A DNA stretch of 64,000 bases from Bacillota bacterium. GTDB taxonomy: Bacteria > Bacillota > Sulfobacillia > JAJZYS01 > JAJZLH01. Made by a program: the position numbers and the translations under genes. Position 1 is the first letter of the stretch, and each line of letters opens with the position of its first letter. The stretch spans positions 33,563-97,562 of the forward strand of contig JAKAUI010000045.1 in NCBI GenBank assembly GCA_021827745.1, written 5' to 3'. This document shows positions 7,801 through 37,916 of this stretch, in pieces. The notes under the pieces are model-generated. The model saw only the letters and a program-made list of their open reading frames with translations. It made no database searches and was not told the origin of the DNA.

Positions 7801-9663
7801 TTAGCGAAACGGGCGCCGCACCTCTCCCACCCGTCTGGTCAGGCGCCGGCCGTCGAAGTACTCGAGCAGCGGAATCGCATAGCGGCGCGAGGTAGAGAGC
7901 AGATCGCGAAACTCTCCGGCGGTCATCTGCGGGTGCGTGTCAAACCAGTCGTTCACCCGCTTTGCGGCCTCCTTGAGGGCGTCTTGGGTGAACAGCCACT
8001 CTCCAATGCGCACCACCCGAGAACTGGCCGCCAGATAGCGGCCGAGCCGGTCCACCTCACCCTCGGAGGCAGCCAGCGAGCGGGCCAGTTCGGCGGCGCT
8101 GGGTGGCATGAAGGGCGTCTTGGCCAGCTGCTCGAGCAGGCGGCGGGCCGGTTGCTCCAGCGGATTCTCAGGATCTGCCCGCAGCTCGGGCAGGCCGATC
8201 ACACCGTCGCCCAGGCGGATGGTCTGCGATCGCTCTAAGGCGGCCATCACCTGAGCGAAGGTAGGACCATCCAGCTCCCGGTACAGTCGCTGACGGATCG
8301 TCTCCGCCCGCTCCCCCAAGCGCTCTGGATGCTCTTGGCCAAGGCGCTTCAGGTAGGCGATCAGCGCCTGCTCCCTGGCTCGGAGTACCGCTTGGCCCAG
8401 CCACTGGTCGCCGATGCGCACGAGCACGCCCTTGCGCTCCAGATCGACCAATAGCTGGTCGGAGGCGCCAGAGACAGATCCCAGGCGCAGCAGGCGACTG
8501 GCCGCAACCTCCAGTCGGCCGCCGGCGCCGCCGGTCTCCATCTTGGTCAGGTCGGCCAGATCCTGCTGGTGATGGCGGCGAAAATGGCCAGAGGTGGCGA
8601 TCACCACGCCGCCGCCGACGGTCGCCTGCGGGGCAACCTGACGCAGCACCATGCGATCTCCGGCCAGAAGCCACAGGGGGTGTTCCAGCCGGATGCGGAC
8701 CAGCGCCGTCTCACCACCGCTCACCCGATCGGCGTCCAAGAGCACCACCCTGCCCACCACCTCAAAGGTGAGGGCGTGGATGTGCAGTCTCTGGTCCGTT
8801 TTGATCGCGTGCTCCCCTGCTAACACGCTCACTCTGGCATAGACGGTGTCGGTGCGATCGCCGCCGCCGGCTCCCTGCACCAGGCTGCCCCGCCCCAGTT
8901 CGCTGGCCTCGGCGCCAACCAGGTTGAGCGCCACCCGCTCGCCGGCTTGGGCGCTCTTCCGGTTCTCTCCGTGCACCTGAACCTGGCGGACGCGCACGGT
9001 CTTCTGCGCCGGCACGGCCAAGAGGCGGTCGTCCACCGCCACCTGGCCGCGGAACAAGGTGCCGGTCACCACCGTGCCAAAGCCGCTGGCGACAAAGGTG
9101 CGGTCCACCGGCAGCCGGGCCGGGCCCTCGGCGCTACGTGGGGGCAGGTCGGCGGTCAGCTGGTCGATGGTCGAAAGGATGTCGGCCAGCCCGGCCCCGG
9201 TCGGGGCTGAAAAGGGCAGGATCGGCGCATTCTTCAAGAAGGTGTCGGCCAGGCGGGAGCGCAGCGCGCGCTCAATCTTGGCCTGCTGGTCGCGATCGAC
9301 CAGGTCGACCTTGGTCAGCACCACGAGCCCTCGGCCCAAGCCGAGCAGCGACAAGATCGCCAGATGCTCCTCGGTCTGCGGCATGACCCCCTCGTCGGCC
9401 GCCACCACCAGGAGCACGGCGTCCATGCCGAAGGCCCCGGCCACCATATGGCGGACGAACCGCTCGTGGCCCGGCACGTCGACGACGCCGGCCCGCCGTC
9501 CGGATGGCAGAACGAAGGGGGCGAACCCCAATTCGATCGAGATGCCGCGCCGCTTCTCCTCAGGCAGGCGGTCGGTCTCCTTCCCGGTCAAGGCCCGGAT
9601 CAAGGTGGTCTTGCCATGATCCACATGGCCCGCCGTGCCAATGATCAGGTGGGTATCGGTCAC
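7801..9663 (-). CDS. selB: Selenocysteine-specific elongation factor SelB
   Basis: GTPase N-terminus (IIGTAGHVDHGKTTL, DVPGHERF, TKVD) followed by a long C-terminal winged-helix region, about 620 aa. The track ORF extends to 9714. A GTG at 9663 gives the typical SelB N-terminus (MTDTHLIIGTAGH). Confidence 0.85.
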   Translation of the reverse strand: MTDTHLIIGTAGHVDHGKTTLIRALTGKETDRLPEEKRRGISIELGFAPFVLPSGRRAGVVDVPGHERFVRHMVAGAFGMDAVLLVVAADEGVMPQTEEHLAILSLLGLGRGLVVLTKVDLVDRDQQAKIERALRSRLADTFLKNAPILPFSAPTGAGLADILSTIDQLTADLPPRSAEGPARLPVDRTFVASGFGTVVTGTLFRGQVAVDDRLLAVPAQKTVRVRQVQVHGENRKSAQAGERVALNLVGAEASELGRGSLVQGAGGGDRTDTVYARVSVLAGEHAIKTDQRLHIHALTFEVVGRVVLLDADRVSGGETALVRIRLEHPLWLLAGDRMVLRQVAPQATVGGGVVIATSGHFRRHHQQDLADLTKMETGGAGGRLEVAASRLLRLGSVSGASDQLLVDLERKGVLVRIGDQWLGQAVLRAREQALIAYLKRLGQEHPERLGERAETIRQRLYRELDGPTFAQVMAALERSQTIRLGDGVIGLPELRADPENPLEQPARRLLEQLAKTPFMPPSAAELARSLAASEGEVDRLGRYLAASSRVVRIGEWLFTQDALKEAAKRVNDWFDTHPQMTAGEFRDLLSTSRRYAIPLLEYFDGRRLTRRVGEVRRPFR

Positions 9664-9733
9664 CTGCTCCGCCAATCCTGCCCCTCCTGCCCGGGTGTCT
9701 CCAAATTTTCCCATGAGACGGCGATAGGTTTCC

Positions 9734-19421: not shown

Positions 19422-20340
19422 GGCGCAGCGCTAGCGCCAACTGCTCTCCCAGCGCCTGCGCCGCGTCGAGATCGCCCTCTGCCGAGGCCGATCCCACGTG
19501 ACCGCCCTCGAGCAGGCTGCCCCGGATCTGCAGCCGCCTCCCCTGGACCGTGGCCCACACGCCGAGCGGCAGGTTGCAGCCGCCGCCGAGCGCCTGCAGG
19601 CAGGCCCGCTCGGCCTCGACCGCCCGGTGGGTCGGCCGATGGTCGATCCTGCGCACCGCCTGGGCCAGCGGGTGGTCCGCTCGACCCTGGACGGCGATCG
19701 CCCCTTGGCCGGCGGCGGGCAGGAGGGGCTCTGGCCCGAGCCTCTGCCACGCTCTGGCCACACCCAGTCGCACCAGCCCAGCCTCGGCCAAGACCAGGGC
19801 GTCCACCTGCTTGGCATCGAGTTTGGCCAGCCGGGTGTCGATGTTGCCGCGGATCTCAACCAGCTCAAGATCAGGTCTGGCCAGGGCCAGAAATCCGGCC
19901 CGGCGCGGCGACGAGGTGCCGACGCGGCTTCCTCTCGGCAACTCCTCGAGTGTGTGTCCCTCTCGAGTGACCAGCACATCCCATGGTGCGCTGCGCTCCA
20001 ATACGGCCAGAATCGCCAGATCGGAGGGCTCGGTCGGCAGATCCTTCAGGCTGTGCACCGCCGCATCCGCCTGGTTGTGGCTGACCGCCGCCTCAAGTGC
20101 CGAGGTGAAGAGCCCGACCTCATCACCTACGCTCAGCGGCAAAGAGCCGTCGTCGCCGGTGGTGGTGAGCAGGACCTCAAGCAGGTCGATGTCCGGCACG
20201 GAGGCCTTGAGTGCCGATTCGACCTGGCGCAGCTGGACCAGAGCCAGAACCGAGCGGCGAGAGGCCAGGCGCAGGATCGGGTGCGGCCCAGCGGACGGGG
20301 TCCGCTGGTAGGCCAGCGGGGCGCCGCCGATGATTCCCAT
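19402..20340 (-). CDS. hemC: Hydroxymethylbilane synthase (porphobilinogen deaminase)
   Basis: HemC motifs (RLASRRSVLALVQ, dipyrromethane Cys region). The track ORF is over-extended. An ATG at 20340 overlaps the hemA TGA (ATGA). Confidence 0.85.
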   Translation of the reverse strand: MGIIGGAPLAYQRTPSAGPHPILRLASRRSVLALVQLRQVESALKASVPDIDLLEVLLTTTGDDGSLPLSVGDEVGLFTSALEAAVSHNQADAAVHSLKDLPTEPSDLAILAVLERSAPWDVLVTREGHTLEELPRGSRVGTSSPRRAGFLALARPDLELVEIRGNIDTRLAKLDAKQVDALVLAEAGLVRLGVARAWQRLGPEPLLPAAGQGAIAVQGRADHPLAQAVRRIDHRPTHRAVEAERACLQALGGGCNLPLGVWATVQGRRLQIRGSLLEGGHVGSASAEGDLDAAQALGEQLALALRRALGSS

Positions 20341-25879: not shown

Positions 25880-26746
25880 TCAGCTCAGGCGGTCTCTGAC
25901 GGCCGGCACCACGTCCCAGGGCATCTCGACCACGCTGGCGCCAGCGGCCTCCAGGGCCTTGCGCTTTGACTCCAGGGTTCCTCGACCACGCTCGATGATG
26001 GCGCCGGCGTGCCCCATCCGCTTGCCGGCCGGTGCCGCCTTGCCGGCCAAGTAGACCACGACCGGCTTGTTCATCTTCTGGATGAAGGGAGCCGCTTCTT
26101 CCTCGGCGCTGCCGCCGATCTCGCCCACCATCACCACCAGCTTGGTCGCCTCGTCCTCTGAGAAGCGATGCAGAATCTCGTTGAAGGTCTGTCCTGCGAC
26201 CGGATCGCCGCCCATGCCCACGGCCGTGGTCTGGCCAAGTCCGGCTCGGGTCAGGGCGTCGGCGATCTCGTAGGACAGGGTTCCGGAGCGGGCGACGAGA
26301 CCGATCGGGCCCGGTGCGAAGATGTGGCCCGGCGGGATGCCCATCTTGGCCTCACCGGCGGTGACCAATCCGAAGGTGTTCGGCCCCAGCACCACGGCGC
26401 CCTGGTAGCGGGCATATTCCAAGATGGCGATCGTGTCCTGGACTGGAACGTGCTCCGGCACCATGACCAGAAGCTTGATCCCTGCGGCCAGCGCCTCGAA
26501 GGCGGCATCTTTGGCAAAAGGAGCCGGCACGAACATGACAGAGGCGCTGGCCCCGGTCTCGTTGACGGCGTCGCTGACCCGGTCGAAGACGGGCACCCCC
26601 TGGTGGATGGTGCCGCCCTTGCCCGGGGAGGTTCCGGCCACGACTCGGCTGCCGTAGGCCGCCATCTGGCCGGCATGGAAGGAGCCCTGGTTGCCGGTGA
26701 TGCCCTGGACTAAGATCGGGGTCGAGCGGTCGATCAAGATGCCCAT
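25880..26746 (-). CDS. sucD: Succinyl-CoA synthetase alpha subunit
   Basis: 288 aa from the internal Met (MGILIDRSTPILVQGITG) with a CoA-binding region and the phosphohistidine segment. The track ORF is over-extended out of frame into sucC. The ATG overlaps the sucC TGA (TGATG). Confidence 0.9.
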   Translation of the reverse strand: MGILIDRSTPILVQGITGNQGSFHAGQMAAYGSRVVAGTSPGKGGTIHQGVPVFDRVSDAVNETGASASVMFVPAPFAKDAAFEALAAGIKLLVMVPEHVPVQDTIAILEYARYQGAVVLGPNTFGLVTAGEAKMGIPPGHIFAPGPIGLVARSGTLSYEIADALTRAGLGQTTAVGMGGDPVAGQTFNEILHRFSEDEATKLVVMVGEIGGSAEEEAAPFIQKMNKPVVVYLAGKAAPAGKRMGHAGAIIERGRGTLESKRKALEAAGASVVEMPWDVVPAVRDRLS

Positions 26747-27858
26747 CACGCGCCTCCTCGGCTCAGCCGGACGGCCTCTTCCGCCGCCTGGTCCATGTCT
26801 CGGTACGCCTGAATGCCCTGTTGCTTCAGGATCTCGATCCCGGCCTCTTCGTTGGTGCCGACCAGCCGCACGACGAGCGGAACGGGGATGCCGCGGCTTT
26901 CCTTCACCTGGGTGATCGCTCGGGCGACGTCGTCGCAGCGCGTGATGCCGCCGAAGATGTTGATCAGGATCACCTTTGGCTTCATCTCGATCAGCACCTC
27001 GATCGCCTGGGCGGTGGGCTCCACGCTGGCGCCGCCTCCGGCGTCCAGAAAGTTGGCTGGCTTGCCGCCGAAGTGCTGGACGGCGTCCAAGGTGGCCATG
27101 GACATGCCGGCGCCGTTGGCCATGATCGCCACATCGCCATCCAGCTCCACATAGGCGAGTCCGATGGCGTGGACCTTCTTTTCCAGGGCGGTGCCCTCTT
27201 CGACCATTGGCAGATCGCCGCGGCGGAAGAGGGCGCTGTCGTCGATGTTCAGTCGAGCGTCGGCAGCGATGATCCGCCCAGCACACCTCACGAGCGGGTT
27301 GATCTCGACCAGCTCGGCGTCGGTGCGGCGAAACACGTCGTACAGCTGGCCGACGATCTTGGCCACCTGCTTGGCCTCATCGCCAACGAGCCCCATCTCC
27401 GCCGCGATCTCGCGACAGAGGTAGGCCGGCAGGCCAAACGACAGATCGACATGGCGGCGAACGAGGTCTCGCTCGGCCACGTCCTCGATCTCGACGCCGC
27501 CTTTGGCCGACGCCATGATCAAGGGCTTTCTGGCGCTGCGGTCGACGGTCACGGAGAGGTAGTACTCCGCCTCGACCTCGAGTTTTTGCTCGACGTAGAC
27601 CTGCTTGACCAGGTGGCCCTTCAGGTCCATGCCCAAGATGGCCTTGGCGACCGTCTCGGCCTCGGCTCGATTCTCAGCGAAGCGGATGCCGCCGGCCTTG
27701 CCCCTGCCGCCGACCAGCACCTGGGCCTTCACAGCGGCGGGACCGATCGCCTCTACTGCGGCCACCACCTCGTCCACCGTGGTGGCGAGCCGTCCCTCCG
27801 GCACCGGAATGTTGGCCTGGCGCAGCGCGCCCTTGGCCAGATACTCGTAAAGCCTCAG
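26746..27858 (-). CDS. sucC: Succinyl-CoA synthetase beta subunit
   Basis: ATP-grasp beta subunit. The conserved N-terminus (LYEYLAKGALRQANIPVPEG) lies upstream of the track's GTG start. The only start-like codon at the homologous Met position is a CTG overlapping the maeA TGA (CTGA). Confidence 0.8.
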   Translation of the reverse strand: MRLYEYLAKGALRQANIPVPEGRLATTVDEVVAAVEAIGPAAVKAQVLVGGRGKAGGIRFAENRAEAETVAKAILGMDLKGHLVKQVYVEQKLEVEAEYYLSVTVDRSARKPLIMASAKGGVEIEDVAERDLVRRHVDLSFGLPAYLCREIAAEMGLVGDEAKQVAKIVGQLYDVFRRTDAELVEINPLVRCAGRIIAADARLNIDDSALFRRGDLPMVEEGTALEKKVHAIGLAYVELDGDVAIMANGAGMSMATLDAVQHFGGKPANFLDAGGGASVEPTAQAIEVLIEMKPKVILINIFGGITRCDDVARAITQVKESRGIPVPLVVRLVGTNEEAGIEILKQQGIQAYRDMDQAAEEAVRLSRGGA

Positions 27859-29114
27859 TTCGGTGTCCCTCCTTCTTCCTCTGCCCCAGTCAGTGCGGCG
27901 AGGCGATGTCCGATCTCCTTGGGGTCGAGATCGGTCACCTGGGCCAGCCCCTCGTCGATGGCGGCGCGGGCCACCGCCTCGGCCACCGCCGGCGCCACCT
28001 TGGGATCGAGCGGCGACGGGATGATGTAGTCCGGGCGCAGCTCGTCCCCGACCAGTTCCGAAATGGCCAAGGACGCCGCCCGGTGCATACCGGCGCTGAT
28101 CTGACGGGCCCGCACGTCCAGGGTGCCGCGAAAGACGCCGGGAAAGCCGAGCACGTTGTTGATCTGGTTGGGGAAGTCCGATCGGCCGGTGCCGACCACG
28201 GCGGCGCCGACCTCCAGCGCCTGGACCGGCCAGATCTCCGGCACCGGATTGGCCAGTGCGAAGACGATGGAACCTGGGCGCATGGCCGAGAGCATGTCCA
28301 TGGTGAAGGCGCCGGCGACAGACAGTCCGATCAGCACGTCCGCGCCGCGCACGGCCTCGGCGAGCTCGCCCTGGCGACGGTCCAAGTTGGTGTGCTGTGC
28401 GATCGACTCCTTCTCCTCGTTCAGCTCTGGCCGCCCGCGATAGATGAGGCCGCGGCGGTCGACCAGGGAGAGGTCGTTGACGCCGAGGGCGAGCAGCATG
28501 CGGGCCACGGCGATGCCGGCCGCTCCGGCGCCGTTGATCACGATCCGGACGTCTCCGACCGTCTTGTTGGCCACCCGGACGGCGTTGATGAAGGCGGCGC
28601 CGACCACGATGGCGGTGCCGTGCTGGTCGTCGTTGAAGACGGGGACGGCGAGCGACGCCTGCAGGCGGCGCTCCACGGCGAAGCAGCGCGGGGCGGCAAT
28701 GTCCTCGATGTTGACGCCGCCGAATCCCGGCTCGATCAGCTCCATCACCCGGCAGATGTCGTCGGGATCCTGGCTTCTGACCAGAATCGGAAAGGCATCC
28801 ACGCCGCCGAAGCGCTTGAACAGGACGGCCTTTCCTTCCATCACGGGAAGAGAGGCCTCCGGGCCGATATCGCCCAACCCCAGCACCGCCGACCCGTCGG
28901 TCAGGATGGCGACCTGATTGGCACGGTTCGTGTAGGTGAAGACCTGCTCAGGATGGGCATGAATTTCGCGGCAGGGCTCGGCCACTCCTGGCGTGTAGGA
29001 CAGGGACAGGCCGTCCATGTCGTCCACCGGCATCTTGGCGGCAATCTCGATCTTGCCCCTGTGCTCGCTGTGATAGCGCAGGGCCCGATCGCGGCTCAGC
29101 CAGCGCCGGCTCAG
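27855..29114 (-). CDS. maeA: NAD(P)-dependent malic enzyme
   Basis: ME domains (LSLSYTPGVA, NAD-binding GAGAAG). The conserved N-terminus (ALRYHSEHRGKIEIAAK) lies upstream of the track's ATG. No ATG/GTG/TTG is in frame, and a CTG at 29114 overlaps the mdh TGA. Confidence 0.8.
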   Translation of the reverse strand: MSRRWLSRDRALRYHSEHRGKIEIAAKMPVDDMDGLSLSYTPGVAEPCREIHAHPEQVFTYTNRANQVAILTDGSAVLGLGDIGPEASLPVMEGKAVLFKRFGGVDAFPILVRSQDPDDICRVMELIEPGFGGVNIEDIAAPRCFAVERRLQASLAVPVFNDDQHGTAIVVGAAFINAVRVANKTVGDVRIVINGAGAAGIAVARMLLALGVNDLSLVDRRGLIYRGRPELNEEKESIAQHTNLDRRQGELAEAVRGADVLIGLSVAGAFTMDMLSAMRPGSIVFALANPVPEIWPVQALEVGAAVVGTGRSDFPNQINNVLGFPGVFRGTLDVRARQISAGMHRAASLAISELVGDELRPDYIIPSPLDPKVAPAVAEAVARAAIDEGLAQVTDLDPKEIGHRLAALTGAEEEGGTPN

Positions 29115-30043
29115 AAGCCCAGCACCGACAGGGGAGCGCGCACCGCTTCCACCGAGGCGTCGAAGGCCGCCTTCTCGTCAGGCTCAAGGCCGATCTCGAC
29201 CACCTCTTCGACGCCGCCTTTGCCGATCACAGCCGGCACGCCGACGTAGACGCCCCGATGGCCGTACTCGCCGTTCAGGTAGGCCACCACCGGAATGGTC
29301 CGGCGCTGATCGAGCAGCACGGCCTCCACCATCTCCGCCGTTGCCGCCGCCGGAGCGACGAAGGCCGATCCGTTCTTCAGCAGCTGCAGGACCTCTCCGC
29401 CGCCGCCCCTAGTGCGGGCGACGATCCGGTCGATCGCCTCCTGGCTGAGATGCCGCTCGACCGGCTCGCCACCGACCGTGGAATAGCGGACCAAAGGCAC
29501 CATCTGATCACCGTGGCCGCCCATCACGAAGCCGAACACATCTTTGGCCGAAACGCCCAGTTCCCAGGCCAGAAAGGTCCGAAAGCGGGCCGAGTCCAAT
29601 CCGCCGGCCATGCCGAAGACCCGCTGATGGGAGAGCCCGGAGGCGCGGTGGGCGACGAAGGTCATGACGTCGACCGGGTTGGTGACCACGATCACGACGG
29701 CCTCCGGCGAGGCGGCCACCGCCCGGGACACCACGTCTGAAATGACGTCGTTGTTCACCTTCAAGAGATCGTCGCGGGTCATGCCGGGCCGGCGCGGCGA
29801 CCCGGCCGTCACCACCAGGACATCCGAGCCAGCCGTCGGGGCGAAGTCGTTGGTGCCGGTCACAGACACGGTGTGCCCGAAGATCGGTGCCGACTCTGCC
29901 AGGTCCAGCGCCTTGCCCTGCGGCCAGCCCTCCACCACGTCGAAGAGGACCAGGTCGCACAGGTTTCGGGCCATCAGCCACATGGCGGTGGTGGCTCCCA
30001 CGTTTCCGCTTCCGACCAGGGTCACCTTCGGTCGCTTGGTCAC
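29111..30043 (-). CDS. mdh: Malate dehydrogenase (LDH-like)
   Basis: 310 aa with an NAD-binding N-terminus (VTLVGSGNVG) and an LDH/MDH catalytic region, starting on GTG. Confidence 0.9.
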   Translation of the reverse strand: MTKRPKVTLVGSGNVGATTAMWLMARNLCDLVLFDVVEGWPQGKALDLAESAPIFGHTVSVTGTNDFAPTAGSDVLVVTAGSPRRPGMTRDDLLKVNNDVISDVVSRAVAASPEAVVIVVTNPVDVMTFVAHRASGLSHQRVFGMAGGLDSARFRTFLAWELGVSAKDVFGFVMGGHGDQMVPLVRYSTVGGEPVERHLSQEAIDRIVARTRGGGGEVLQLLKNGSAFVAPAAATAEMVEAVLLDQRRTIPVVAYLNGEYGHRGVYVGVPAVIGKGGVEEVVEIGLEPDEKAAFDASVEAVRAPLSVLGF

Positions 30044-30044
30044 C

Positions 30045-31286
30045 TCAGCTCACTCCCTTGTTCTGCATGCGGGACATCATCGACCGGGCGAACTCGGAGG
30101 TGGACACCTTGGTCGCTCCCGGCCGCACCAGGTCGTAGGTGACGATGCCATCGGCGATCGACTGGGCCAGGGCGCCCTCCAGCAACTTGGCCGCCTCGGT
30201 CCAGCCCATCGCCTCCAGCATCATCGCCGCCGACAGCATCAGGCTGCCGGGGTTGGCCTCGTCCTTTCCGGCATGGCGCGGGGCCGTGCCATGGGTGGCC
30301 TCGAAGACCGCTGCCTGATCCGATAAATTGGCGCCTGGCGCCAGGCCGATGCCGCCCACCTCGGCGGCGATGGCGTCCGACAGATAGTCGCCGTTCAGGT
30401 TGGTGGTGGCGATCACGTCGTAGGCGCCCGGGTGCAGCAGCACCTGCTGGAACATGTTGTCGGCGATCCGGTCCTTGATCACGACCAGCCCTTCGGGCGG
30501 CGGGCCGCTCAGATCCTGCTCCAAGACGACCTGGCCCTTGAACTCGGACGCCACCTCGTATCCCCAGTCCCGAAAGGCGCCCTCAGTGAACTTCTGGATG
30601 TTTCCCTTGTGCACCAGGGTCACAGAACGGCGGTGCGCCTCTATCGCGTAGGTGATCGCTCGCCGCACCAGACGCTTGGAGGCACCCGGGCTGATCGGCT
30701 TGATGCCGATGCCGGATAAAGGATCGATGCTGACCCCAAGCCGCTCTTTCAAGGTTGCGACCAAGAGGGCGGCCTCGGCCGATCCAGAGGGCCACTCGAT
30801 ACCGGCGTACACGTCTTCCGTGTTCTCGCGGTAGATGACCATGTCGACCTGCTCCGGGTGCTGCAGCGGGCTCGAGACACCTGGGTAGTAGCGGACGGGG
30901 CGGACACAGGCGTAGAGATCGAGTTCCTGGCGAAGCGCCACATTCAAGGAGCGGATGCCGCCGCCGACCGGTGTCGTGAGCGGCCCCTTGATCCCAACCT
31001 TGACCTGGCGCAGGGTGTCCAGCGTGGCCGGTGGCAGGTAGCTCCCGGTACGCTCCTTGGCCTTTTCACCGGCCAGGACCTCGACCCAGACGATCTTCCG
31101 GCGCCCTTCGTAGGCGCGCTCGACCGCAGCTTCGGTCACTGCCTTGGTGGCCGGCCAGATGTCTCGTCCGATGCCGTCGCCTTCGATGAAGGCGATCAGC
31201 GGGTGATCGGGCGTGCGCATCTTGCCGGAACCGAACTCGACCAGATCGCCGCCGCCTGGGAGCGTCTCACTCATCACGGATCCCAT
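30045..31286 (-). CDS. icd: Isocitrate dehydrogenase (NADP-dependent)
   Basis: 413 aa of the prokaryotic homodimeric IDH type ([23 protein letters not shown]). Confidence 0.9.
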
Positions 31287-31368: not shown

Positions 31369-32859
31369 TCAGAGCTTGATGCTGGGCGTTCCGCTCGGAG
31401 CCACGACGAGCTTGGCCCACATACCGAGCTGGATGTGTCCGGGCACCAGACAGGCGATCACGTAGTTGCCGGCGGTTGTGGCCTTGAAGGTGAAACTGGA
31501 CTTGGCCCCCGGCGCGTCGCCGAGCACCGGGTTCGGCGTTTCGTCTGTGGCTGCAAGCGCCGTGCTCGAGGTCTGCGACGCCGTGATCGCCGCCGAGTGG
31601 TTCAGGCTGCCGTCGTTGGTGAACGCCACATCCAGGGTCCAGCCCTGGGGAATGGTCACCACCATCGCCCCGTTTGCAGCCCCGTTGAAGTTGAACCCTC
31701 CGTTGGTGGTGCCGTAGCCGCCGAGCAGGGTGAGGGTGGCCGTCTTGGTGGCCGCGTTGGTGGAAAGGTAGCTGCTGGCCGCCTGCACCGGTGCGGCGAC
31801 CCCCTGGTTGACGGCCCCCAGATAGGTCAGAACGACGATCGCCGCCACCACGATGCCGCCGGAGTAGACGTAGCCCTTGCGCTCAGATGGCTTGCGGTCG
31901 GGGATCTTGTCGATGAAGGGCAAGAGCACGAGCATCAGGATGCCGATCGTCGGCAGCCCGATGATGCCGAAGGCGTCCAAGGCCGGCGGGATGTACTTCA
32001 AGAGCTGGTAGATGGAGAAGAAGAACCAGAGCGGAATCGGCACGTAGTGGGCCTTGTTCAAGGGGTCGGCGATGGCCAGGAGCGGGGCGTGGAAATTGAT
32101 CGAGAAGTAGAGCAGAGCGGCCGAAAGGATGACCAGGAACATGGTCATCTGAAACACGGTGGTCGGGAAGAAGGTGACGAGCCCCCGCTGCTTCTCCTTG
32201 GGCAGCTTCTCGGCCTCTTCCACCATGGTCAGTTGCTTGCTGAGCACCATGTAGAAGTGAAGCCCGAAGACGAGCAGGAAGAGCGCTGGCAGAACGAGCA
32301 CGTGGATGGCGTAGAAGCGGGTGAGCGTGACCCCGGTGATGTAGGGGCCGCCGCGCATCAGGAGCACGATGTAATAGCCGATCACCGGCATGTAAAAGGG
32401 CATCCAGGTGCCGACCATCGTCGCCCAGTAGGACTGCTGGTCCCAGGGCAAGAGATAGCCGGTGAACGAGAACAAGATGGTGATCAGGAGCAGTCCGACG
32501 CCAGACAGCCAGACCAGTTCCCTAGGCTTGCGGTAGGCGCCGATGTAGTAGCCGCGCAGCATGTGCAGGAAGACCAAGACCACCATGAAGTTGGCGCCCC
32601 AGTAATGCAGGTCCCTGATCAGCCACCCCAGCGGCACCGTGTGCATGATCCGCTGTACGCTCTGGTAGGCGCCGGTGACCGAGGCGTTGTACCAGGTGGC
32701 CAGGATGATGCCTGTGACCACCTGGTTGATGAACACGAAGAGCGTCCCCAGGCCCAGAAAGTCGAGCGGGCTAACTCGGCGCGGCACCCGGTGGTAGAGC
32801 TGAAGATTGATGAACGACCGGATTCCCATCCGGTCGATCACCCAGTTGGCGGGCTTCAA
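31369..32859 (-). CDS. qcrB: Menaquinol-oxidoreductase subunit: cytochrome b6 + subunit IV + C-terminal cupredoxin fusion
   Basis: Two bis-His heme-b helices (HYWGANFMVVLVFLH, HVLVLPALFLLVFGLH), a subunit-IV-like region (PIPLWFFFSIYQLL), and a C-terminal ~150-aa domain with type-1 Cu ligands (...NH..., CLVPGHIQLGM). There is no CxxCH. The likely start is a TTG at 32859 overlapping the qcrA TGA. Confidence 0.8.
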   Translation of the reverse strand: MKPANWVIDRMGIRSFINLQLYHRVPRRVSPLDFLGLGTLFVFINQVVTGIILATWYNASVTGAYQSVQRIMHTVPLGWLIRDLHYWGANFMVVLVFLHMLRGYYIGAYRKPRELVWLSGVGLLLITILFSFTGYLLPWDQQSYWATMVGTWMPFYMPVIGYYIVLLMRGGPYITGVTLTRFYAIHVLVLPALFLLVFGLHFYMVLSKQLTMVEEAEKLPKEKQRGLVTFFPTTVFQMTMFLVILSAALLYFSINFHAPLLAIADPLNKAHYVPIPLWFFFSIYQLLKYIPPALDAFGIIGLPTIGILMLVLLPFIDKIPDRKPSERKGYVYSGGIVVAAIVVLTYLGAVNQGVAAPVQAASSYLSTNAATKTATLTLLGGYGTTNGGFNFNGAANGAMVVTIPQGWTLDVAFTNDGSLNHSAAITASQTSSTALAATDETPNPVLGDAPGAKSSFTFKATTAGNYVIACLVPGHIQLGMWAKLVVAPSGTPSIKL

Positions 32860-33392
32860 TCGATCTGCCCCCCGATGTATACGTTGCCGTTCGCGATCTT
32901 GACCACATGCGGCCACAGGCCCCTAGGCGCCGGCCCTGCGATGTGCTGGCCGTTGGCGTTGTACACAGAGCCGTGGCACGGGCACTGGAACTCCTTCAAG
33001 CTTGAGTTCCACTGCACCGGACACTGCAGATGGGCGCAGTGAAAGTCGAAGGCCTGGATCACGCCAGGCGACTTCTGCCGGACGTAGACACCGTCCGGAA
33101 AGCCGGCGCCCGTGTAGTCGATCAGGGTGTAGTTGTTCGTGAACTTGTTGATCGGTCCGATGTTCTGGAGCTTGCCCAGGGGTCCGCTGGCTGGGAACAG
33201 ATTCTTCAGCGCCAGTCCGAGATAGCCGACGCCGAACAGGCCCATGGCGCCGATCAGGCTGTTTCTCAAGAACTTGCGACGGCCGAGCTCCCGCTCTGCC
33301 CGCCCATCGGCGATGCAGTCGGCACAGACCTCCCCATCGCCGTCCACCGGATTCCCACAGATGCTGCAGCGCAACCTTGTGTCCACCGTCAT
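32856..33392 (-). CDS. qcrA: Rieske [2Fe-2S] protein with N-terminal zinc-ribbon
   Basis: 178 aa with Rieske boxes CAHLQC and CPCHGS, an RRKFL twin-arginine/TM anchor, and an N-terminal CSIC...CADC motif. Confidence 0.85.
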   Translation of the reverse strand: MTVDTRLRCSICGNPVDGDGEVCADCIADGRAERELGRRKFLRNSLIGAMGLFGVGYLGLALKNLFPASGPLGKLQNIGPINKFTNNYTLIDYTGAGFPDGVYVRQKSPGVIQAFDFHCAHLQCPVQWNSSLKEFQCPCHGSVYNANGQHIAGPAPRGLWPHVVKIANGNVYIGGQID

Positions 33393-35310: not shown

Positions 35311-35406
35311 TGGCGGGAGCAGGTAGGAATCGAACCTACCGCGGACGCGACGCGCCCGCCATTGGATTTGAAGTCCAAGGGGGACACCAGCCCCACCTCT
35401 GCCCCC
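35311..35406 (-). tRNA. selC: tRNA-Sec (selC), anticodon UCA
   Basis: 96 nt with an 8-bp acceptor stem (GGGGGCAG/CTGCTCCC), anticodon arm TTGGA-CTTCAAA-TCCAA matching the E. coli selC loop, a long GC-rich variable arm, T-arm GGTAGG-TTCGATT-CCTACC, discriminator G and an encoded CCA. Confidence 0.85.
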
Positions 35407-36690: not shown

Positions 36691-37916
36691 CGGCCGCCCC
36701 AGTGTGCGATCCACACCGGAACAACTGACCCGGCCCGGATCCGGCCTTGACCCGGTTCCGAGCGCACCCAGGCATCTAGCTGGCGCAGGGCGGAAACGGC
36801 TCCCGATCCGCCGTATGACGCCGGGCGCACCTCCAGCCGTCCGTCGTCCAGGCCGAGCTCGGCCGGCCAAAATCTCGGCACCTTGCCCCGATTCGGCGGC
36901 AGCGCTGCTTTGAGATACGCCTGCGCCGATCTGGCCTCGCAGCCACGGCCCTCCATCGCCGCCAGCAGCGGCCGCACCAGTCGGTCAAAGCCAAGGGCGG
37001 TGGCGAGAGGGTTTCCGGGCAGGGCAATCCAGAGGGCGTGTCCGCCAGAAAACGCCTGCAACGGCTGCCCTGGACGCATCAAGAGGCCGTCGACCAGGGT
37101 GCGCCGGCCAAGGCGCGCGGACACCCGACGCACGAAGTCGCGCGGTCCCTTTGAGGCCCCACCGGTGGTGAGCAATAGATCGCACAGCGAGTCCAGCCTG
37201 CGCACCTCCGCCTCAAAGCGGGCCTCGTCGTCGCCGAGGGTCAGGCTGATCACCTCACATCCCAGGGCCACCAGCTGCTGAGCCATCCAGGGGCCGTTGG
37301 TGTTGCGGACCATCCCGGGACCAAACGCGCCCTCTTCCACCAACTCGGAGCCGACCGACAAGACGGCAACCGTCACTGGCCGCCGGACGCTGACCTCGCT
37401 TACCCCGGTGGCGCGCAAGAGCGCCAGCTGGCCGGGCCCCAGTCGCTCGCCGCGGCCAAGGATGCTCGCTCCCTTGCGCACCTCTTCGCCGACGTGCCGC
37501 ACATTGTCCCCTGGCCTGGGCCAGTGGCGAAGCACGACCATCTGCCCCTCCACCGTCACCTCTTCCTGCCAGGCCACACCTGCGTCGGCGGGCACCACGG
37601 CTCCGGTGGCCACAAACAGGGCCTGGCCGGGGCCCAGGGTCGGCGCCGGACCGTCGCCAGCGTACAGCCGGCCGATCAGCGCACAGCTCTGACGGCTTTC
37701 TCCGACGACGGCAAAACCGTCGACGGCCGAGGTCTCAAAGGCGGGCAGAGGGTTTAGAGCCCGCATGCCCTGCGCGGCCACCCGTCCCAGAGCCTGGTCC
37801 AGGCCGATCCGCTCCACGCCCTGCCTCGGGGCGTGACTGGCCAGGATCTCTTCGGCTTGCTCCGGGCTCAGCCGTTCCATCGCCACGGACTTGCACCTTC
37901 CGCCTGCGCCATCCAT
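36687..37916 (-). CDS. moeA: Molybdopterin molybdenumtransferase MoeA
   Basis: About 400 aa with MoeA N-terminal, MoCF-binding and C-terminal regions. The start is probably the internal Met (MERLSPEQAEEIL) near 37880. Confidence 0.85.
   Translation of the reverse strand: MDGAGGRCKSVAMERLSPEQAEEILASHAPRQGVERIGLDQALGRVAAQGMRALNPLPAFETSAVDGFAVVGESRQSCALIGRLYAGDGPAPTLGPGQALFVATGAVVPADAGVAWQEEVTVEGQMVVLRHWPRPGDNVRHVGEEVRKGASILGRGERLGPGQLALLRATGVSEVSVRRPVTVAVLSVGSELVEEGAFGPGMVRNTNGPWMAQQLVALGCEVISLTLGDDEARFEAEVRRLDSLCDLLLTTGGASKGPRDFVRRVSARLGRRTLVDGLLMRPGQPLQAFSGGHALWIALPGNPLATALGFDRLVRPLLAAMEGRGCEARSAQAYLKAALPPNRGKVPRFWPAELGLDDGRLEVRPASYGGSGAVSALRQLDAWVRSEPGQGRIRAGSVVPVWIAHWGGR

Follow-up and report, generated by a model that had tools for sequence, protein, structure and literature searches.

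Two consecutive CTGA junctions in the icd-mdh-maeA-sucC-sucD operon of an uncultured Bacillota bacterium point to CUG initiation of maeA and sucC

Initiation at CUG has precedent among bacterial chromosomal genes. Escherichia coli hda and yfjD use CTG starts, which were predicted from a conserved N-terminus lying before any canonical start together with inspection of the ribosome binding site, and were confirmed by start-codon mutagenesis (EcoGene 3.0, PMC3531124). In E. coli reporters, CUG supports 1–2% of the initiation obtained with AUG (bioRxiv 10.1101/063800). Co-directional genes joined by 4-base overlaps form a second relevant class; in both bacteria and archaea, termination-reinitiation couples such pairs, and the Shine-Dalgarno (SD) sequence contributes to a varying degree (PMC6728339, Huber et al. 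2019; PMC12548453; PMC3592434). Here we analyze a 64,000-nt stretch of contig JAKAUI010000045.1 (positions 33,563 to 97,562; assembly GCA_021827745.1) from an uncultured, Sulfobacillus-like Bacillota bacterium, hereafter the window, in which two adjacent genes of a tricarboxylic acid (TCA) cycle operon, maeA and sucC, very probably initiate at CTG codons that share two bases with the stop codon of the gene upstream.

This locus resembles each of the described systems in part. Like hda and yfjD, maeA and sucC are chromosomal genes with a conserved N-terminus before any canonical start; they differ in being two adjacent genes of one operon, with each CTG sharing two bases with the upstream UGA. 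The termination-reinitiation pairs described at ATGA and TGATG junctions (Huber et al. 2019, PMC6728339; review PMC12548453) are likewise co-directional, with a 4-base overlap and an SD element in the upstream open reading frame (ORF). As in those pairs, the genes encode enzymes of one pathway, and sucC and sucD specify subunits of one complex. The published coupling work concerns canonical starts, whereas the start here is the near-cognate CUG, and CUGA was not among the terms turned up in PMC6728339 and PMC3592434. A further parallel is provided by E. coli infC, which encodes initiation factor 3 (IF3) and is separated by 3 nt from the cistron before it (PMC3592434), and by pcnB, both of which have a conserved weak AUU start that limits or tunes expression. 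AUU, however, belongs to a different codon class (third-position mismatch) and operates under a known IF3 autoregulatory logic. CUG initiation and coupling at 4-base overlaps are both already known, and sister metagenome-assembled genomes (MAGs) already carry CTG annotations for these genes, so the locus represents no new mechanism. The novelty lies in documenting two neighboring CUGA junctions that are retained across a clade, together with a series of ATGA, TTGA, and CUGA starts among orthologues.

The two junctions lie on the minus strand. At the first (29111–29114), the mdh coding sequence ends GGC TTC TGA, and its TGA (29113–29111) overlaps the proposed maeA start, a CTG at 29114–29112. 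At the second (27855–27858), maeA ends CCG AAC TGA, and its TGA (27857–27855) overlaps a CTG at 27858–27856, the proposed sucC start. The co-directional 4-base NTGA overlap typical of termination-reinitiation is thus found at both 29114–29111 and 27858–27855, with the coordinates and the CTG/TGA overlap reading as an initial annotation of the window had described them. That annotation also proposed that conserved N-terminal segments of both proteins lie upstream of the first in-frame ATG, GTG, or TTG, and frame scans, profile matches, and PDB alignments bear this out.

For sucC the correspondence is exact. Beginning at CTG 27858, the frame continues AGG CTT TAC GAG TAT CTG GCC AAG, encoding (L)RLYEYLAK, or more fully (L)RLYEYLAKGALRQANIP, and yields a 370-codon gene (26746–27858, minus strand; TGA 26748–26746) for the beta subunit of ADP-forming succinyl-CoA ligase. 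Its product matches the NCBIfam equivalog PRK00696 with 406 bits (cut-off 370), residues 2–366 lying on profile positions 2–385. Residue 2 also aligns to residue 2 of PDB 3ufx_B and 1jkj_B, and CTG 27858 therefore falls precisely at the position of Met1. The first canonical codon, a GTG at 27802–27804 that serves as the Prodigal-type start of a 352-aa product, is 18 codons past the CTG, and a start there would drop the conserved (M)RLYEYLAK segment. Upstream of this GTG the sucC frame is open for 381 codons (27805–28947, minus strand), across nearly all of maeA, with neither a stop nor an ATG, GTG, or TTG.

At maeA the N-terminus is similarly conserved, and the position of the initiator is less sharply defined. 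Beyond CTG 29114 the frame reads AGC CGG CGC TGG CTG AGC CGC GAT CGG GCC CTG CGC TAT CAC, which translates from the CTG as L S R R W L S R D R A L R Y H (LSRRWLSRDRALRYHSEHRGKIEIAAK), and the resulting 419-codon gene (27855–29114, minus strand; NCBIfam PRK12861) encodes a short-type NAD(P) malic enzyme. Residues 8–392 match positions 8–408 of the PRK12861 profile, and PDB 5cee aligns from residue 8. The first canonical codon is an ATG at 29031–29033, the Prodigal-type start of a 392-aa product, which a frame scan places within the conserved N-terminus, 27 codons in; the nearest in-frame stop before it is some 48 codons upstream, and the interval contains no ATG, GTG, or TTG. CTG 29114 is the first near-cognate codon past that stop. 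A second in-frame CTG lies at 29097–29099, overlapping a second TGA in the mdh frame, and the methionine of the malic enzymes of Sulfobacillus acidophilus and S. thermosulfidooxidans (MESRDRAL, MHSRDRAL) aligns with the TGG codon between the two CTGs (29102–29100). The proposal that CTG is the only start-like codon at the homologous methionine position stands for sucC, where the match to Met1 is exact, and needs one correction for maeA, which offers CTGs at 29114 and 29099 with the aligned methionine falling on the TGG between them.

The doubling of start-like and stop codons at maeA coincides with a short repeat. Two copies of CTGAGCCG, spaced by 15 nt (CTGAGCCGGCGCTGGCTGAGCCG), are found at 29092–29114 on the minus strand, and this duplication yields two in-frame mdh TGAs five codons apart along with the two in-frame maeA CTGs. 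The second copy is confined to the closest clade, comprising the window and lineages L081–L083 and L109. Among malic-enzyme homologues retrieved from databases, outside the window, two (P0005 and P0006) are 658–707 aa long and carry two tandem malic-enzyme modules per polypeptide.

We assessed whether the segments between the CTGs and the canonical codons are translated by counting variable sites in an alignment of seven lineages, covering 14 maeA codons and 17 sucC codons after the CTG. Sorted by codon position (first, second, third), the variable sites number 4, 4, and 11 in maeA and 6, 7, and 15 in sucC; this third-position bias indicates that the segments upstream of the canonical starts are translated. 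Codons 2–5 of maeA (S R R/H/K W) show synonymous (AGC/AGT, CGG/CGC) or conservative changes and zero indels across relatives of 69–99% identity, a pattern that holds even where TCC, ACA, or GCG stands in place of the second CTG. The downstream canonical codons, for their part, are not conserved as starts: the codon equivalent to ATG 29033 is GTC in L087, and that equivalent to GTG 27804 is ATC in L090.

The nearest proteins belong to uncultured Sulfobacillus sp. MAGs, the cultured S. acidophilus and S. thermosulfidooxidans being about 64–66% identical, and the MaeA homologues recovered span 99–63% identity. Expressing relatedness as the identity of concatenated MaeA and SucC to the window, CTGA is present at both the mdh/maeA and maeA/sucC junctions in the window, L082, and L110–115 (~100%), in L081 and L109 (90% for L081), in L083–85 (85%), and in L090/L092 (69%). 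L086 (71%) and L087/L093 (71%) have CTGA at mdh/maeA and TTGA at maeA/sucC. In L088 (70%) the junctions read TAG GGC ATG and ATGA, respectively; L108 (68%) has TAG caa ATG at the first and a sucC ATG behind a 13-nt spacer at the second; and in S. acidophilus (L107, 63%) maeA starts at a GGAGG-led ATG and the maeA/sucC junction is TAG c GTG. At the sucC junction a single homologous nucleotide, the first of the start codon, thus varies among A, T, and C, while the overlapping stop fixes the TG, and orthologues place a canonical start at the identical position (ATG in L088, TTG in L086 and L087). For maeA, homology to canonical starts is only approximate, since the ATG lies 2–4 codons downstream in L088, L107, and L108. 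CTG 29114 is the sole near-cognate codon common to all six CTG lineages. On a rough neighbor-joining tree, which is only indicative, the sucC CTG lineages do not form one group, suggesting that the T/C state has switched more than once. Two metagenome pattern matches, L089 and L095, read LKLYEHLAKAAP... with no SucC-like continuation and were set aside.

An SD element common, if not obligatory, in termination-reinitiation lies inside the upstream ORF at both junctions, at markedly different strength. Before sucC, within the last maeA codons, the site AAGGAGGG (27867–27874, minus strand) has a GGAGG core ending 9 nt before the CTG, and a GGAGG- or GGGGG-like motif occurs 7–12 nt before the sucC start in all seven lineages despite variation in the encoded MaeA C-terminus. 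Before maeA, alignment of the upstream regions reveals only a weak SD-like GGTG (29123–29126, minus strand) 8 nt from CTG 29114, located in the mdh codons ..G GTG CTG GGC TTC and extended to GGGGTG or GGGGGTG in L083, L086, and L090. The anti-SD of Bacillota reads ..CCUCCAC.., with which GGTG presumably pairs.

To gauge how unusual these junctions are, we counted stops and overlaps in a curated gene list of the window. TGA is the stop of 40 of the 56 genes, and there are 16 four-base overlaps: 6 GTGA, 5 ATGA, 3 TTGA, and the 2 CTGA of maeA and sucC. The other 14 overlaps therefore use ATGA, GTGA, or TTGA, as had been noted at the outset. A C precedes TGA at 2 of the 16 overlapping stops, compared with 16 of the 24 TGA stops lacking a start overlap (Fisher p = 0.001). 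Given how common C is before TGA, a CTGA alone means little, and the finding rests instead on homology and comparative data; the depletion of C at 4-base overlaps, in turn, implies that selection normally acts on the initial base of a start that overlaps a stop and that the maeA and sucC junctions are true exceptions. Two further CTGA sites considered as CTG starts were rejected: at 20340 the real start is an ATG in a TGATG overlap, and at 37868 an ATG is found 3 codons upstream (MERLSPEQ...). An NCBIfam scan of 10 other genes with long open pre-start stretches found no hidden non-canonical start; their full-length family profiles begin at or after the canonical start, except that 2 genes have no match and 2 match C-terminal domains only. 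The CTG starts are local to this operon, and no genome-wide habit is visible in 64 kb.

Taking these lines of evidence together, we think it likely that MaeA and SucC initiate with formylmethionine (fMet) on a CUG that shares its U and G with the upstream UGA, and that this CUG is fed by terminating ribosomes. CUG initiation at both genes, the core of the initial annotation, draws support from the coding constraint, the unconserved downstream starts, the ATG and TTG of sucC orthologues, and the many assemblies that carry the junctions. As to its components, we infer from sequence comparison that fMet initiation on CUG, dependence on upstream termination, and use of the first maeA CTG (29114) over that at 29099 are the most likely arrangement. 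A ribosome finishing on UGA would already be placed over the CUG and could be held there by the upstream SD element, strong for sucC (GGAGG at −9) and weak for maeA (GGUG/GGGGUG at −8). The high local supply of ribosomes would offset the weakness of CUG, such that initiation would plausibly be well above the uncoupled level, with fMet-tRNA most likely tolerating a mismatch at the first position of CUG, as happens at GUG and UUG. The C itself also occupies the third, wobble position of the final sense codon of each upstream gene, TTC or TAC for mdh and AAC for maeA, and this suggests how it may have originated. The window has a GC content of 66.6%, and GC at third codon positions (GC3) in its genes is near 0.87; this strong codon bias supplies a simple driver for the change from TTGA to CTGA. 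The weak start may either set a low level of MaeA and SucCD or merely be tolerated.

Several considerations weigh against this reading. For this uncultured organism the case is built on sequence, and the reinitiation step at CUGA junctions is plausible by analogy to experiments in E. coli and Haloferax. The second maeA CTG (29099), in the closest clade, is nearer to the methionine of the cultured Sulfobacillus enzymes and is the one chosen by the NCBI pipeline, and the SD-like element before maeA is only weak (GGTG/GGGGTG at −8). The depletion of C shows CUG to be generally disfavored at overlaps, and the low MaeA and SucCD expression it could entail would be odd for a TCA enzyme. Finally, the last-codon choices of the upstream genes, TTC, TAC, and AAC, make up 71–81% of their codon families; this bias alone can explain a conserved C, and conservation is accordingly no proof of selection for CTG.

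Consecutive CUGA junctions kept down to ~70% protein identity, with the ATGA/TTGA/CUGA series of orthologues at one of them, provide a clean natural test of the extent to which coupling can make up for a weak start codon, as well as a test case for the erosion by GC3 bias of start codons shared with the last codon of an upstream gene. They also make the operon a candidate system for studying start-codon stringency in reinitiation, besides being useful for annotation.

Among other accounts of the data, the one that survives best holds that the CUG starts are used by ordinary SD-directed de novo initiation and that the UGA overlap is incidental packing. It has in its favor the strong, conserved GGAGG 9 nt upstream of the sucC CTG, the documented CTG starts of hda and yfjD, and the estimate that about half of second-cistron translation at overlaps in E. 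coli reporters is de novo (PMC3592434). Yet maeA has only GGTG to direct such initiation, CUG by itself reaches roughly 1–2% of AUG, and both cases in the window sit exactly on 4-base overlaps, whereas a non-overlapping CTG start was seen in 0 of the 10 other candidates scanned with NCBIfam. We regard this account as unlikely, if still a credible one.

A narrower alternative keeps CUG initiation at both genes and moves the maeA start to the second CTG (29099–29097), 12 nt downstream of the mdh stop. PGAP-type calls in L081 and L109 begin at this codon, which is one codon from the methionine of the S. acidophilus and S. thermosulfidooxidans malic enzymes. Against it, the equivalent codon is TCC in L086, ACA in L087, and GCG in L090, where only the first CTG is available; the SRRW codons between the two CTGs change synonymously or conservatively and without indels; and no SD-like motif precedes the second CTG. 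On balance, a start at 29099 seems rather improbable.

We give similarly little credence to a more radical idea, namely that at the 4-base overlaps of this lineage just-terminated ribosomes reinitiate with little regard to the first base of the start, leaving A, T, and C near-neutral under GC3 pressure. The ATGA/TTGA/CTGA series of sucC orthologues fits such relaxed reading, as does the rough neighbor-joining tree, on which CTG arose or reverted more than once. If true, the operon would be a natural experiment showing that reinitiation loosens the start-codon proofreading that IF3 normally exerts on 30S complexes, with 70S scanning as one conceivable route. A variant in which relaxation is lineage-wide, through changes in the anticodon stem of the initiator tRNA or in IF3, is less likely.

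A further account is the Prodigal-type assumption that translation begins at ATG 29033 and GTG 27804 to give shortened proteins. These are the sole ATG, GTG, or TTG codons available, and public calls of 392 and 352 aa follow them. We nonetheless consider this very unlikely, as the segments upstream show third-position-biased variation and align with the N-termini of profiles and PDB structures, the two codons are replaced by GTC in L087 and ATC in L090, and neither has an obvious SD in front when read from the sequence.

Recoding, which the initial annotation had listed as the alternative to CUG starts, gained no support. Under this explanation a −1 frameshift at the end of mdh or maeA, or TGA readthrough or selenocysteine insertion, would fuse the proteins. 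In its favor, each downstream gene is read in a frame offset by −1 from that of the gene before it, and both tRNA-Sec and SelB are encoded. The −1 relation, however, is inherent to any NTGA overlap; the sites (G GGC UUC UGA, with UAC in L086 and L090, and C CGA ACU GAG) contain no X XXY YYZ heptamer; a ribosome reading through the mdh TGA would encounter another TGA 5 codons on; in outgroups, spacers set the genes apart and each has an ATG or GTG of its own; and no significant conserved RNA structure was detected, with folding z-scores of +1.25 and −0.74. Fusion by recoding is thus scarcely credible. A 13-bp hairpin at the mdh/maeA junction (29099–29129, minus strand) was considered and rejected, being no more stable than shuffled sequences (z = +1.25) and having pairs broken in L087 and L090 by manual pairing; in its layout the CUG/UGA overlap occupies a UCUG tetraloop, GGUG lies in the 5′ arm, and maeA codons 2–5 lie in the 3′ arm. 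The tRNA genes in the window are tRNA-Pro and tRNA-Sec only, the latter (anticodon TCA) at 35311–35406 on the minus strand, and selB lies at 7801–9714 on the same strand (TIGR00475, E 4e-107). The presence of both implies that some UGA is decoded as selenocysteine; we found no sign that the junction TGAs are involved.

Sequencing or assembly error in place of ATG, GTG, or TTG, favored only by the rarity of CTG starts, is excluded. Six independent assemblies of the same population carry both CTGA junctions identical to the window, and no fewer than five other diverged lineages, sampled elsewhere, have CTGA as well; at mdh/maeA the diverged carriers number about six, at 69–90% protein identity. 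The same data bear on two points raised by the initial annotation: CTGA is indeed conserved at the related junctions, and canonical codons in orthologues, proposed as a sign of error, do occur as ATG or TTG in distant relatives but do not count as such here, since CTG is kept in more than 10 independent close-relative assemblies.

These starts have consequences for deposited proteins. Public gene calls for this genome give a 392-aa MaeA (P0121) and a 352-aa SucC (P0125), and the exact products appear on at least 10 contigs; the truncation arises because the callers know only ATG, GTG, and TTG. Throughout the clade MaeA and SucC are widely deposited in N-terminally truncated form (392–397 and 351–352 aa; P0001, P0003, P0004, P0009, P0010, P0013, P0121, P0125, and P0130), and some SucC calls are 359 aa long, from an internal TTG start at codon 12 in the L081 lineage. 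In sister Sulfobacillus sp. MAGs, the NCBI pipeline already assigns a CTG start to each of the two genes. Its records (MHB1506186.1, MHB1506187.1, MHB1981166.1, MHB1981167.1, and MHB1843130.1) give the full-length products, of 370 and 414 aa, and their start coordinates fall on a CTG. They differ from our reading in taking the second CTG for maeA, as in L081 and L109, where the gene begins at 39 and 1522, respectively, with a product beginning MSRERALRYH, and they are automatic calls made without comparative or experimental argument. Homology-anchored start calling would repair the Prodigal-type truncation, which amounts to 392 versus ~419 aa for MaeA and 352 versus 370 aa for SucC.

The genes icd, mdh, maeA, sucC, and sucD, all identified by NCBIfam profiles, form one tightly packed minus-strand operon whose order is kept in every relative fetched. 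The first, icd (30045–31286, minus strand), encodes an NADP isocitrate dehydrogenase (TIGR00183, E 2e-173), and a single base separates its TGA (30047–30045) from the GTG that opens mdh, as read from the sequence. Looking up the exact Icd sequence gave no match. The malate dehydrogenase gene mdh runs from GTG 30043 to TGA 29113–29111 (29111–30043, minus strand; TIGR01763, E 1e-129), with residues 4–308 matching profile positions 1–305. At the distal end, sucD (25880–26749, minus strand; TIGR01019, E 1e-114) encodes the alpha subunit of succinyl-CoA ligase. The sucC/sucD junction, cGTGATGg (26744–26749, minus strand), offers two starts that overlap the sucC TGA, a GTG (by 4 bases) and an ATG (by 1 base); the sucD start is canonical either way, and public calls begin at the ATG of the GTGATG junction (288 aa). 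A promoter and terminator scan of the coding strand from icd to sucD, weak evidence in itself, found no internal signals.

Upstream, the neighbor of the TCA operon encodes a 515-aa protein (31369–32916, minus strand) whose N-terminal part resembles cytochrome b6 and whose C-terminal part is of the blue-copper type, resembling sulfocyanin (SoxE). A gene for a Rieske-type iron-sulfur subunit (32856–33392, minus strand) precedes this fusion gene, and the cytochrome b6/sulfocyanin-like fusion is also called in relatives (L083).

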